Below the pieces are notes generated by a model. It had not been told where the DNA came from. It worked only from the letters and a program-made list of their open reading frames with translations, and did no database searches. DNA of 53,107 nt, taken from NCBI GenBank assembly GCA_019414465.1, contig DXLY01000003.1:3137-56243 (forward strand), read 5' to 3'. This document shows positions 26,745 through 29,700 of this stretch, piece by piece; within the stretch, counting starts at the first letter, position 1; every line of letters starts with the position of its first letter. The position numbers and the translations under genes are program-made. The DNA comes from Collinsella sp. (lineage in GTDB: Bacteria > Actinomycetota > Coriobacteriia > Coriobacteriales > Coriobacteriaceae).

Positions 26745-29700
26745 TTACTCCTCGTCGTTGTCCTTGGCCTCTTCGGCGTCGTCGGTGTCCACGAGCTGGT
26801 TGAGCAGCTCGTCGAGGGACGCCATGTCCTCGTTGATCGCGCCGTTGGCGGGAGCCTTCTTGTCGTCGATCGGGGCGCCCAGGAGCTCCTCGTCGGCGTC
26901 GGCGTGATGCGTCGGAGCGGAGGTACCCAGCAGGATATCGTCCGGACCGTCGGGGCTAAAGACCATCTGCAGCAGCTGCGAGAGGTCTTCCTCGTCGGCA
27001 ACGTCGTCGTTGTTCTCGAGGATGTAGAGCAGGTCGTGGGCCTCCAGGCCGTCACGGAGCTCCTCGATCGCCTTAGCACCGATACCATCGATGCGCAGCA
27101 GATCCTCCTCGGACTTGCCGACCAGGTCGCCGACCGTCTCGATGCCGACCTCGCTGAACTTGTTGGTCCAACGCTGCGACACGCCCAGGTCGTCGAACAG
27201 GTACAGGCGAGCCTTCTCGGCGGAGATGGTATGGCCGTTGCGGGTGAACGAACCGTCAGCACCACCGAACTCGTCGTAGCCGGCCCAGTCGAGCTGCTGC
27301 GGGAGCTGCTCGTCCAGGTCCTTGAGCTCCACAGGGGCCCACTCAGGCAGCGACTTGGCGTTGGGCGAAGCCGGGCCGTCGATGTCCACGTAGCCGTCGG
27401 CCGTGCGATACGTCAGCTTGGCGTTGGCATACGGTTTGAGGCCGGTACCAGCCGGGATCTTCTTACCGACGATGACGTTGGACTTAAGGTCGAGCAGGTG
27501 GTCGACCTTGCCCTCGATGGCAGCCTCGGTAAGGACGCCGGCGGTACGGATGAACGAAGCGCTCGACAGCCAGGAGTCGATGTTGGACGCGACCTTGAGC
27601 GTACCCAGGATGACGGGCTCGGCCACGGGAGCCTGACCGCCCAGACGGGCAACGCGCTCGACCTCGTCAGCGAACTCGTAGCGGTCGACGTACTGACCAA
27701 GCAGGTACTTGGAGTCGCCGGGGTTGGTGATCTGAACGCGACGCAGCATCTGACGTGCGAGCACCTCGATGTGCTTGTCGTTCAGGTCGACGCCTTGGCT
27801 GGTGTAGACGTCCTTGACGCTCTCGACGAAGGTGTGCATCGTCGACTCGATGTCGGTCAGCTTGCGCAGGTTGCGGAAGTTGACGAAGCCCTTGGTGATC
27901 TGGTCGCCAGCGCGAACCTCGCAGCCGTCCTCGATCTCGGGCATGAAGCGCACCGAAGCGGGGACGCGACGCTCGTCGAGGACACGGGTGTGATCCTCGG
28001 AGTCGGTGAGCGTCAGCACGTACTCGGACTTCTCGGGCTTAATCGAGAGGTGGCCGGAGTACGGAGCCAGCTCGGCCTCGCGACCCAGGATCTTCTCGTT
28101 GACGTTGCCGACGATATCGAACATACGGCTGACCGTAGGCAGACCCTGCGTAATATCGTCGACGCCAGCGACGCCGCCGGAGTGAATGGTACGCATCGTA
28201 AGCTGCGTACCGGGCTCGCCGATGGACTGGGCGGCAATAATGCCGACGGCAGTACCGATGGCGACCGGACGACGGGTGGAAAGATCCCAGCCGTAGCACT
28301 TCTGGCACACGCCGTACTTGGAGCGGCAGGTGAGCAGCGCGCGAAGCTTGACCTTCTTAAGGCCGGCATCGACCATCTTCTGGATGTCAGCGACCTTCTC
28401 GATGTAGCCGTCCTGCTCAAAGAGCACGGTGCCATCGGGAGCCACGACGTCCTCAATGAAGCAACGGCCGACGAGGTCGGTGTTGAGGTCGGTGGTGCCG
28501 GGGATGATGAGGTTGTAGGTGACGCCCTCGTGCGTACCGCAGTCCTCCTCGCGGACGATGACGTCCTGGGCCACGTCGACCAGACGACGGGTCAGGTAAC
28601 CAGAGTCCGAGGTGTGGGATGCGGTATCGACCAGGCCCTTACGGGCGCCGTAGGTCGAAATGAAGTACTCGAGCGGCAGCAGGCCCTCGCGGAAGTTCGC
28701 CTTAATGGGGAGGTCGATCGTCTCGCCGGACATGTCTGCCATCAGGCCACGCATGCCGCCGAGCTGACGCAGCTGGGTCTTAGAACCACGGGCGCCGGAG
28801 TCGGCCATCATGTAGAGCGGGTTCTCCTCGTCGAACATGTCGAGCATGAGCGCTGCAACCTTATCGGTACAAGCGGTCCACTCGTTAACGACTTCGATGT
28901 GGCGCTCCGTCTCGTTGATGAAGCCCTCTTCGAAGTACTCGTTGATCTGGTCGACGTTGGCCTGGGCGCGGTCGAGCAGCTCCTGCTTCTCGGCAGGGAT
29001 GAGAGCGTCCCACACCGAGATGGTGAGGCCGGCGCGGGTAGCGTAGTGGAAGCCGGAGTACTTGATGGCGTCGAGGATCGGGCCGACCTTGGCCTCGGGG
29101 TAACGATCGCAGCAGTCCGCAACCAGCTTAGCCACGTCGCCCTTGACCATCTTGTAGTTCATGAACTCGTAGTCTTCGGGCAGGCACTGGCGGTTGAAGA
29201 TGATGCGGCCGATAGAGGTCTCGAAGCGCGCGGTCTTGTTGCCGGTAACGTCGTAGTCGACGAACTCGTTCTTGCCGTTCTTGACGCGGAAGATACGGGT
29301 GCCGTCCTCGTTGATGACGTTGGCATCGGCAGCGGACACGCGAACCTGGATCTTGGCCTGCATGTCGACCTCGGAGCGGCAGTCATAGGCGTGCAGCGCG
29401 TCGTCGAAGCTGGCGAACACGTGGTTCTCGCCCGGCAGACCCTCGCGGACCTGGGTGAGGTAGTACACACCGATGATCATGTCCTGCGAAGGGATGTTAA
29501 CCGGCTTGCCGGATGCCGGCGAGCGCAGGTTGTTCGCAGAGAGCATGAGCACGCGAGCCTCGGCCTGAGCCTGGCTGGACAGCGGCACGTGGACAGACAT
29601 CTGGTCGCCGTCGAAGTCGGCGTTGAAGGGCGAGCAGACCAGCGGGTGCAGGTGGATAGCCTTGCCCTCGACCAGCACCGGCTCAAAGGCCTGGATGGAC

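Follow-up and report, generated by a model that had tools for sequence, protein, structure and literature searches.

An Alpha-CTD-Family Domain at the C-Terminus of the RNA Polymerase Beta' Subunit in Collinsella and Related Coriobacteriia

Results

The rpoC Gene and Its Extension

The stretch of DNA analysed here (the window) comprises 53,107 nucleotides of a Collinsella sp. contig, DXLY01000003.1, and carries on its reverse strand an rpoC gene whose product continues past the usual end of beta' (Table 1). The string GKKIPAGTG occupies residues 1254-1262 of beta', and 231 more residues follow before the stop codon at 26745-26747. A first-pass annotation, made from the sequence alone, had estimated about 230 extra residues; the span that it gave, 26745-27420, covers the extension minus its first 8 codons, the extension itself reaching 27440. 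The model for canonical beta', TIGR02386, matches residues 14-1266 (model positions 2-1145 of 1147) with 1526.1 bits against a cut-off of 963.5. Five Rpb1 Pfam domains are found in the product, upstream of the alpha-CTD-like domain described below.

Table 1. Features of the rpoC locus, in window coordinates.
Feature	Position	Strand	Details and basis
rpoC, whole long-form beta' gene	26745..31226	-	1493 codons + stop; ORF list, translation
Canonical beta', residues 1-1262	27441..31226	-	11-residue terminal string; TIGR02386
Linker, residues 1263-1335	27222..27440	-	partly ordered; AlphaFold2, dN/dS, charge
Linker motif LPEWAPxELKxLExxLP, residues 1293-1309	27300..27350	-	alignment, AlphaFold2
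Alpha-CTD-like (HhH)2 domain, residues 1336-1403	27018..27221	-	PF03118, AlphaFold2, Foldseek, VIA, dN/dS
PF03118 match, residues 1345-1395	27042-27194	-	Pfam RNA_pol_A_CTD
Acidic tail, residues 1404-1493	26748..27017	-	3 K/R, 29 D/E, net -26
Tail motif 1 (13 residues), residues 1414-1426	26949..26987	-	predicted amphipathic helix
Tail motif 2 (15 residues), residues 1464-1478	26793..26837	-	predicted helix
Terminator-like hairpin + U run	26625..26675	-	~75 nt past rpoC stop; RNA folding

The full-length protein falls into NCBIfam NF011498 (PRK14906), matching from residue 4 to residue 1492 (positions 2-1454 of 1459) with 2593.8 bits (cut-off 1437). On its own, the extension reaches 258.7 bits over model positions 1235-1454. 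This long-form beta' equivalog is the Collinsella protein's own family, and no difference from it was seen. The library name of NF011498 is plain beta', and we take PRK14906 to be titled beta'/alpha domain fusion protein in CDD. The fusion is also present among the precomputed Pfam architectures, and through these two sources it is already known as an object. A literature search found no functional study of a beta'-alpha-CTD fusion, in agreement with the first-pass annotation, which knew of none; older comparative papers on RNA polymerase might mention the extension. A text search of a review from 2026 on alpha-like subunits (PMC13374769) gave no occurrence of the words fused, fusion, Actinobacteria or Coriobacter, and the BEAN/HABAS survey, which covers the architectures of beta and beta', masks, according to its figure legends, the termini beyond the shared core (PMC11515920).

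Folding of the RNA downstream of the stop codon detected a terminator-like hairpin of -33.2 kcal/mol (z = -6.1), and none of 200 shuffled sequences folded equally well. This hairpin was missed by a simple scan for consensus terminators. RNA-library contigs from two studies stop at 26632, which is a weak hint for a terminator. The extension is spanned by contigs from RNA libraries (four runs from three studies), for which DNA carry-over is possible; apart from substitutions, a single in-frame insertion of 3 nt is all that sets them off from the window.

An Alpha-CTD-Like Domain on Beta'

The string that had been likened to alpha-CTD (LFDDL...AHDL, residues 82-138 of the extension protein P0002) lies at window positions 27030-27200, exactly where it had been placed. 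The Pfam model RNA_pol_A_CTD (PF03118) recognises the domain with 34.9 bits in the whole protein and 38.2 bits in the extension alone, against a gathering cut-off of 23.8, and a PF03118 scan of the whole genome again returned it above the cut-off (40.2 bits). The generic HHH_5 model gave 21.2 bits, under its cut-off of 27, as compared with 38.2 for the alpha-CTD model. When the PDB sequences were searched with phmmer, 50 of the 51 matches at E<=1 were RNA polymerase alpha subunits, the best being the B. subtilis alpha-CTD (1z3e_B, E 5.2e-6); a DASH-complex row among the matches (E 0.46) was discarded as chance. Aligned with the real E. coli RpoA, the domain runs without gaps over residues 255-316 and keeps R265, N268, G296 and K298, just as the first-pass annotation had stated. 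It also aligns without gaps to the alpha-CTD of its own genome, with 23 of 52 residues identical.

The AlphaFold2 model has pLDDT values of 84-95 over extension residues 80-150, and the predicted structure is compact, an (HhH)2 fold some 60-70 residues long, as in the RNA_pol_A_CTD family. Foldseek superposed this model on isolated alpha-CTD chains with TM scores of 0.66-0.87 (target-normalised) and rmsd values of 1.2-1.9 Å over 52-68 columns, with weak E-values (best 2.4e-3, none <=1e-3). With VIA, 49 of 50 among the matches listed were RNA polymerase alpha subunits, at Z values of 6.6-10.1, many of which lie below the tool's caution line of 8. The fold comparison proposed earlier thus returned a predicted alpha-CTD-like (HhH)2 domain. 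The protein is not itself an RpoA, as its domain follows five Rpb1-type domains and not an alpha N-terminal dimerisation domain; the true rpoA lies elsewhere in the genome (G000:C119, a 314-aa ORF), and its own CTD is intact, with 97.4 bits. Because rpoA retains this CTD, three modules of the alpha-CTD type should be present on the core enzyme, and a third tethered HhH module was the right structural description.

Distribution and Selection

In the class sample, the extension is carried by all 54 Coriobacteriales genomes and by 37 of the 67 genomes of other orders, and it also occurs in one Gaiellales genome. The beta'/alpha-CTD fusion is ancient. Four genomes of the same genus (G005, G006, G008 and G011) had a match in rpoA only; their beta' core likewise lacks its final 370 residues, which are conserved, and these absences were set aside as assembly gaps.

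The ratio dN/dS is 0.09-0.21 in the domain (five pairs with finite values), 0.27-0.64 in the linker and 0.30-0.61 in the tail. The domain is under purifying selection, and at least 30 columns within it are invariant across 13 Coriobacteriales families (alignment A2). Conservation of the extension, which the first-pass annotation had wished to see checked, is therefore borne out both by its distribution and by selection, and we are all but certain that beta' bears here a real, selected domain of the alpha-CTD family.

Contact-Face Residues and Charge

Residues were counted in 41 beta' sequences, with the numbering of E. coli alpha. R265, N268, G296 and K298, which we take to be DNA-contact residues of the E. 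coli alpha-CTD, are kept to different degrees: G296 in all 41 domains, R265 in 40, K298 in 35 (with Arg in two more) and N268 in 30. Position 269, a Cys in E. coli, is Lys in 37 of the 41, and S266 is replaced by Trp in 39. The equivalents of K271 and K297 are basic in 0/41 and S299 has become Ala in 40; the further residues C269, K297 and S299, presumably also on the DNA face of alpha-CTD and considered for membership of RNA_pol_A_CTD, are thus not retained. Several of K271, K297, S299 and C269 matter, we assume, for UP-element binding in E. coli. At the positions that we take to be the sigma and CAP contacts, E261 is Gly in 39 of 41 domains and residue 287 is variable. Residue D259 is acidic in 41/41, and the basic residues of the beta' domain fall at E. 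coli positions 265, 269, 284, 298 and 304.

The flanks of the domain are acidic, as had been noted: the linker has a net charge of -6 and the tail of -26, which together with -7 to -8 for the domain amounts to about -39 for the whole extension. Over the 41 domains the mean net charge is -5.2, as against 0 both for the E. coli alpha-CTD and for the alpha-CTD of this genome; near-neutral domains, with net -1 to -2, occur outside Coriobacteriales (L018, L019, L021, L022 and L024). The acidity of the beta' domain (net -8 versus 0 for alpha-CTD) is a new observation.

Linker and Acidic Tail

The linker, of about 73 residues, has pLDDT values of 49-84 and contains two predicted beta-hairpins and one helix. 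Within its conserved motif, where a helix is predicted at extension residues 46-54, L40, P41, A44, P45, L48 and P56 are invariant in all 21 Coriobacteriales sequences aligned, and the motif is retained in other orders and in the zinc-finger variants described below.

All 21 of these sequences also possess the acidic tail, in shortened form in one (L044), and in the other orders no tail follows the domain. This restriction to Coriobacteriales is a new observation; because every domain-bearing beta' outside the order lacks the tail, it is an add-on, outside the core mechanism. Most of the tail lies below a pLDDT of 60. In the first of its two motifs, P172 is invariant in the order alignment A2, and S163, L165 and F170 are almost so; the corresponding helix, at extension residues 159-170, is predicted with pLDDT ~84 in the full extension and ~66 in the model of domain plus tail. 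In the second motif L218 is nearly invariant (A2), and a helix is predicted at residues 215-229 with pLDDT about 65-70. In an ESM Atlas search with the tail the highest score was 0.77, under the tool's lead threshold. The proposal that the tail autoinhibits the domain drew no support from the AlphaFold2 monomer models; in the model that joins the tail to the domain alone, the first tail helix has the pLDDT of ~66 given above.

Zinc-Finger Variants of Beta' and the NusA Finger

In genomes of two sister families (f15 and f23), the beta' linker is kept and two CCCH fingers stand in place of the domain (5/5 examined). The zf-TRM13_CCCH model matches these beta' ends with 28.6-33.7 bits, against a cut-off of 20.9, and PF11722 matches lie in ORFs of 1428-1457 aa (G044, G047, G103, G068 and G123). 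A single CCCH finger is found on the beta' of one MAG (L092). On the tree of the beta' core, rooted at the midpoint, the zinc-finger rows form one group with support of 85/82 (not starred). That sister families replace the domain by CCCH zinc fingers, one or two in number, is a new observation.

NusA of these organisms has no AR1/AR2 domains and carries at its end a basic CCCH finger of the same type as the beta' fingers. This finger is present in all 18 NusA proteins examined from genomes with the beta' extension. A specific co-occurrence of the two was rejected, since the finger is also found in three of five genomes of the phylum that are without the extension.

Discussion

A Proposed Tethered Nucleic-Acid-Contacting Module

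The most likely function of the extension would be that of a swappable, beta'-tethered module that contacts nucleic acid. We favour only tentatively, and with somewhat less than even confidence, the view that contact with nucleic acid through the alpha-CTD-like face is its main job. Because R265, the G-x-G hairpin, K298 and, in most sequences, N268 are kept, the beta' module could serve as a tethered nucleic-acid-contacting head, to which K269 and a nearly invariant W266 would have been added while the remaining surface turned acidic. Its contacts would be expected to be weak, transient and face-specific, and to be made with DNA close to the polymerase or, as the Trp suggests, with single-stranded DNA or RNA. 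The beta' C-terminus adjoins omega, and in Pol II the Rpb1 linker and CTD leave from the same position, near the RNA exit and the upstream DNA; judging from this location, the likely target would be promoter DNA on the upstream side or nucleic acid close to the RNA exit. That sister families put CCCH fingers on the same linker argues that selection favours a small head able to bind nucleic acid and tethered to beta'. The acidic tail would most likely act in cis, in the manner of the C-terminal region of Firmicute delta or of sigma region 1.1, competing with non-specific nucleic acid and sharpening selectivity or recycling. Counted against contact with nucleic acid are the acidity of the domain and the loss of the equivalents of K271, K297, S299 and C269.

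The same net charge of -8 would suit a domain that had abandoned DNA binding and become a protein-docking hub on a tether, where regulators, sigma or NusA would land much as activators and NusA do on alpha-CTD; we consider this rather unlikely. Almost the whole domain surface is nearly invariant in the order, a pattern no less compatible with protein partners than with DNA, and invariance across 13 families exceeds what a face contacting the DNA backbone would need; the acidic residue at position 259 is kept throughout. The fold is a proven protein binder, the PDB matches including, by their entry titles, alpha-CTD with Spx, CAP, AfsR and RpaA as well as NusA-containing complexes, and the basic CCCH finger of the AR-less NusA is a conceivable partner. 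However, across the class the best-conserved positions are those of the DNA face (R265, the G-x-G hairpin, K298 and the added K269), while the presumed sigma and CAP contacts at 261 and 287 have been given up or vary. The CCCH replacement in sister families is also more readily understood if both kinds of head share a nucleic-acid target, and the occurrence of the NusA finger in genomes without the fusion speaks against a specific pairing with the extension.

Charge is likewise the starting point for regarding the extension as a built-in polyanion similar to delta or sigma region 1.1, mainly a nucleic-acid mimic that clears the DNA channel and speeds recycling, with the HhH domain as no more than a spacer or anchor. 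Linker, domain and tail all carry net negative charge, the tail is mostly predicted to be disordered, and no delta was found in this genome, which is 91% complete: HARE-HTH (PF05066) gave no match in the genome or in the extension itself, while the controls B. subtilis and L. lactis gave matches. In delta the C-terminal region is disordered, bears a net charge of -47 and, within the main channel, competes with nucleic acids (PMC7749165). We nevertheless hold this explanation to be improbable. Members outside Coriobacteriales keep the domain without the tail, some of them in nearly neutral form; the domain is by its dN/dS the most tightly constrained part of the extension; and conservation of R265, G296 and K298 would not be expected of a mere spacer. 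The reading of the extension as a functionless relic that is tolerated without a role, or as an annotation artefact that is not made, is close to refuted, and we give it hardly any credence. Lineage-specific terminal extensions are often dispensable and the RNA-library contigs are compatible with DNA carry-over, but the extension is a single open frame with no stop, followed by the terminator-like hairpin; it is carried throughout the order and by 37 of 67 genomes of the other orders; dN/dS is well below 1 in linker, domain and tail; and related strains differ in it by substitutions and an in-frame insertion only.

A broader arrangement can also be imagined, in which the C-terminus of beta', in Coriobacteriia and in some other Actinomycetota, would act as a module socket: a conserved tether would bear exchangeable heads (an alpha-CTD-like HhH domain, one CCCH finger or two) and form with the NusA finger a lineage-specific coupling device at the RNA-exit/upstream-DNA side. 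The beta' head and the NusA finger might then share one binding element in nascent RNA or in DNA, or bind each other, for example, and the whole would be for these bacteria what the CTD platform is for Pol II, with the acidic tail of Coriobacteriales as its built-in regulator. We regard this as a long shot.

Comparison with Known Systems

The alpha-CTD is the textbook tethered module that links UP elements and many activators to RNA polymerase. The beta' domain resembles that of E. coli in belonging to the same HMM family, in its gapless alignment, in its predicted (HhH)2 fold and in the long linker that separates it from the core. It differs in being attached to beta' and not alpha, and in one copy rather than two; in its net charge; in the presence of W266 and K269 and the loss of K271, K297 and S299; and, in Coriobacteriales, in the acidic tail. 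The AR1 and AR2 domains of proteobacterial NusA are also (HhH)2 domains of acidic character, flexibly tethered in the transcription machinery, but by HMM the beta' domain is an alpha-CTD, and the NusA of this clade ends in its CCCH finger without AR domains.

Firmicute delta (RpoE) similarly combines a small folded domain with a C-terminal polyanion that is disordered and tethered to the core; the net charge is -47 in delta and -26, over 90 residues, in the beta' tail. The two are unrelated in sequence, the polyanion of Coriobacteriales is covalently part of beta', and it has two conserved helices in place of low-complexity repeats. By analogy only, the linker and CTD of Rpb1 in Pol II, whose C-terminal position is near Rpb6/omega and the RNA exit, are likewise a flexible C-terminal appendage of the largest subunit that bears binding modules or motifs; the beta' extension has neither heptad repeats nor homology to it, and its head is a folded HhH domain, as predicted.

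An abundant human-gut class of Actinomycetota (Collinsella, Eggerthella and relatives) has a third, chemically altered copy of alpha-CTD on another subunit. If this module contacts nucleic acid or factors, promoter architecture and activator geometry would differ from the models built on E. coli, Bacillus and Mycobacterium, and NusA-dependent pausing and termination might differ too. This would matter for promoter prediction and for genetic tools in these organisms, and nature would here have run an experiment on the number of tethered modules for DNA binding that one polymerase can use.

Other Polymerase-Associated Factors

The RbpA family (PF13397) was not found in the genome, nor in the 15 other Coriobacteriia of the phylum sample. 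We considered whether the extension compensates for this absence and rejected the idea, since PF13397 is present in only 28 of the 201 genomes of the phylum, so that its absence is unspecific. Omega is represented by a weak match only, of 24.5 bits, slightly under the cut-off of 26.

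The Beta' Subunit Ends in an Alpha-CTD-Family Domain

In the rpoC product the usual beta' end motif, GKKIPAGTG, occupies residues 1254-1262 and the canonical beta' model TIGR02386 is exhausted at residue 1266; past the motif, the frame stays open for 231 extra residues up to the stop. The first-pass annotation had placed an alpha-CTD-like domain in this extension, and the string it quoted lies exactly at window 27030-27200. Pfam RNA_pol_A_CTD matches residues 1345-1395 with 34.9 bits for the whole protein and 38.2 bits for the extension alone (gathering cut-off, 23.8 bits), the generic HHH_5 model scores under its own cut-off, and eight NCBIfam rpoA models also match this stretch (E 3e-9 to 1e-4). 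When the extension was compared with PDB sequences by phmmer, 50 of the 51 matches at E<=1 were alpha subunits and, one chance row aside, no other chain was matched.

We aligned the fetched E. coli rpoA and the genome's own alpha-CTD with 41 beta' domains sampled throughout the Coriobacteriia. The alignment to E. coli alpha is gapless over E. coli residues 255-316, and the alpha-CTD of this genome is identical to the beta' domain at 23 of 52 positions, again without a gap. From the 41-sequence alignment, AlphaFold2 gave pLDDT values of 84-95 over extension residues 80-150. The best Foldseek matches in the PDB were alpha-CTDs, with TM scores of 0.66-0.87 (target-normalised) and rmsd of 1.2-1.9 A for isolated CTD chains; significance is low (best E-value 2.4e-3, none <=1e-3) because the bulk of the 240-residue query is disordered. 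VIA-align Z scores reached 10.1, and 49 of 50 rows were RNAP alpha subunits. The profile score, the gapless alignment and the predicted fold bear out the proposed alpha-CTD-like domain. The genome's own rpoA is normal (314-aa ORF) and retains its CTD (97.4 bits); with the beta' copy alongside it, the earlier description of a third alpha-CTD-type module therefore holds in structural terms.

Alpha-CTD-like domains were also seen in metagenomic proteins (P0123, P0124, P0129, P0131, P0178, P0185, P0189, P0262), some of which hold tandem arrays of 8-11 copies; others are SNF2 or ResIII helicase-like proteins that end in 3-4 copies. These tandem and helicase-linked occurrences make the domain a portable module.

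A Basic Contact Face on an Acidic Domain

Several alpha-CTD residues have functional roles in E. coli, DNA contact among them. Counted over the 41 beta' sequences in E. coli alpha numbering, R265 is kept in 40, G296 in all 41, K298 in 35 (with Arg in 2 others) and N268 in 30. Position S266 is Trp in 39, C269 is Lys in 37, N294 is Gly in 41 and S299 is Ala in 40, while K271, K297 and R255 are never basic (0/41). The basic residues of the beta' domain, at E. coli positions 265, 269, 284, 298 and 304, lie on or near the DNA face of the alpha-CTD, whereas the remainder has turned acidic. Over 61 aligned residues the net charge is -8 here (mean -5.2, range -9 to -1), compared with 0 for both the E. 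coli alpha-CTD and the genome's own. The extension as a whole is polyanionic, with a net charge of -6 in the linker, -7 to -8 in the domain and -26 in the tail.

The acidic tail follows the domain in 21 of 21 sequences of Coriobacteriales (short at one locus, L044) and carries two motifs conserved in the order, D-x-SQLLxMVFSPD and I-N-E-D-x-x-S-L-D-E-L-L; in other orders beta' ends within about 5-10 residues past the domain. Judged from these sequences, the tail is an add-on specific to the order. AlphaFold2 predicted both motifs as short helices and the rest of the tail as disordered. The pLDDT of the first tail helix was about 84 when the whole extension was modelled but about 66 for domain and tail only; therefore, these models show no sign of this helix docking on the domain.

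Distribution and Selection

Among the sampled relatives, the extension was found in beta'-sized frames in 16 of 16 genomes from the order's 12 other families, and in 18 of 22 genomes of the same genus. The four remaining (G005, G006, G008, G011) also lack the final 370 beta' core residues, and the 3' half of their rpoC is therefore taken to be unassembled. Besides Collinsella, carriers include Enorma, Coriobacterium, Senegalimassilia, Raoultibacter and Rubneribacter. Across 121 genomes of the class (counts from the listed rows), the domain is present in 54 of 54 from the order, in frames of at least 828 aa, and in 37 of 67 from other orders. The 30 genomes without it comprise all 24 of family f15, one each of families f23, f25, f26 and f27, 1 of 11 of f22, and one of f16 that is only 59% complete; the f27 genome (G145) is so counted among the matches listed, its second match lying beyond those.

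In the phylum sample (201 Actinomycetota genomes, 185 outside the class), only G180 had, among the matches listed, one in a beta'-sized frame (1441 aa); G167, G209 and G286 have further matches beyond those listed. Alone among our results, the phylum-sample tallies rest on unpublished-flagged genomes, eight in number (G234, G311, G264, G216, G197, G153, G288, G169). In G180, a Gaiellales MAG of another class (loci L031 and L094), beta' has a terminal alpha-CTD-like domain that scores 49.1 bits on PF03118, with an unrelated linker, Tyr at position 265 and a short acidic tail; this fusion may have arisen independently.

Five within-family pairs gave finite dN/dS estimates, which range over 0.09-0.21 in the domain, 0.27-0.64 in the linker and 0.30-0.61 in the tail; two further pairs, more distant, were saturated.

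Zinc Fingers Replace the Domain in Sister Families and End NusA

Families f15 and f23 also have a long beta' (1415-1453-aa frames) with the same linker as the HhH carriers (LPEFAPEELKELE..., IDVSxFxGxVFEP). In all 5 genomes inspected, however, a tandem pair of CCCH zinc fingers stands in place of the HhH domain. Zinc-finger beta' proteins match zf-TRM13_CCCH with 28.6-33.7 bits (cut-off 20.9) and, in two of three, DUF5763 with 33-35 bits. Five more genomes have PF11722 matches in frames of 1428-1457 aa, and one Actinomycetota MAG has a single CCCH finger on beta' (L092). In a midpoint-rooted tree of the last 300 core residues of beta' (46 sequences), the five zinc-finger sequences cluster together (support 85/82, not starred), nested in an unresolved set of HhH-bearing lineages, and HhH carriers fall on both sides of the root. 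We infer that the fingers took the place of the HhH head once.

PF11722 matches in frames of about 400-460 aa proved to be NusA, as identified by NusA_N and KH_5 domains. In 13 of 13 proteins from eight families of the order, NusA is without AR1/AR2 and closes with an acidic linker, a single CCCH finger whose four ligands are invariant, and a short acidic end; the finger is of the same type as those on f15 beta'. NusA from the genome of the window (G000) and from all 18 relatives examined (L105, L114-L130) likewise lacks AR1/AR2 and ends in an acidic linker and one CCCH finger. The finger was also found in NusA of f15, f16, f18, f22 and the Gaiellales genome (5/5). Of 5 phylum genomes that have no beta' extension, 3 carry it with a variant ending and the two large ones lack it; therefore, its co-occurrence with the extension is not specific. 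These occurrences do show the CCCH finger to be a module of the transcription machinery.

Possible Roles of the Extension

At the C-terminus of beta', a conserved tether bears an alpha-CTD-family domain that is itself conserved and under selection, retains the DNA-contact face and is interchangeable with zinc fingers. We tentatively favor a role in which this tethered head contacts nucleic acid. It would probably work close to the RNA exit or to upstream DNA; the C-terminus of beta' adjoins omega. Its affinity would probably be weak because the surface is acidic, and it may favor single strands owing to its invariant Trp. The tail could plausibly act, by analogy, like the acidic region of delta, which, within the main channel, competes against nucleic acid (PMC7749165).

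The strongest alternative is protein docking, which gains support from the domain's acidity and from a surface that is nearly invariant over its whole extent within the order; we regard it as somewhat unlikely. That the extension serves mainly as a polyanion seems distinctly less probable, and an extension without function is very hard to credit.

The fusion is already known as an object. The window's protein matches the long-form beta' model NCBIfam NF011498 end to end, precomputed Pfam architectures place PF03118 on these beta' proteins, and the CDD title of PRK14906 is, we presume, beta'/alpha domain fusion protein. Our literature search found no functional or structural study of such a fusion, in line with the first-pass annotation, which knew of no functional one; several older comparative papers may mention it. 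New here are the domain's acidity, its contact-face signature of Arg-Trp and Lys, the limitation of the acidic tail to Coriobacteriales, the zinc-finger swap in sister families, the finger common to NusA and zinc-finger beta', and the Gaiellales case (G180).

The 3' End and Surroundings of rpoC

RNA folding placed a strong hairpin and U run ~75 nt 3' of the rpoC stop (-33.2 kcal/mol, z = -6.1; 0 of 200 shuffles folded equally well), which is not among the results of a simple consensus terminator scan. RNA-library contigs from related strains (four libraries, three studies) cover the entire extension, their only differences from the window being substitutions plus a single in-frame 3-nt insertion, and those from two studies terminate at 26632, inside the hairpin. 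Such contigs cannot prove transcription; they give a hint that the extension is transcribed. The insertion, at 26916 within the acidic tail, was seen in four runs and agrees with the 1494-aa beta' forms of same-genus genomes.

Coordinates of the genes and loci discussed (window numbering unless a contig or locus is named)
Feature	Position	Strand	Remark
rpoC	26745..31226	minus	1493 codons; extension at its 3' end
rpoB	31227..34718		directly upstream of rpoC
rplJ	36709..37230		upstream, beyond rpoB
ECF-type sigma factor ORF	25917-26441	minus	Sigma70_r2 + r4_2
358-aa ORF	24890-25966	minus	overlaps the sigma factor ORF
NusA of G000	G000:C62:10942-12168 (L095:543-1772, partly masked)		CCCH finger at end
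Omega match of G000	G000:C81:10043-10246		RNA_pol_Rpb6
Two-finger beta' loci	L054-L058 (G071, G059, G040, G109, G087)		families f15, f23, f25

Both the sigma factor ORF and the 358-aa ORF lie between rpoC and rpsG/fusA; the latter has no Pfam match and, at a guess, might encode an anti-sigma factor. The sole omega match in the genome scores 24.5 bits against a Pfam cut-off of 26, and its omega may be divergent.
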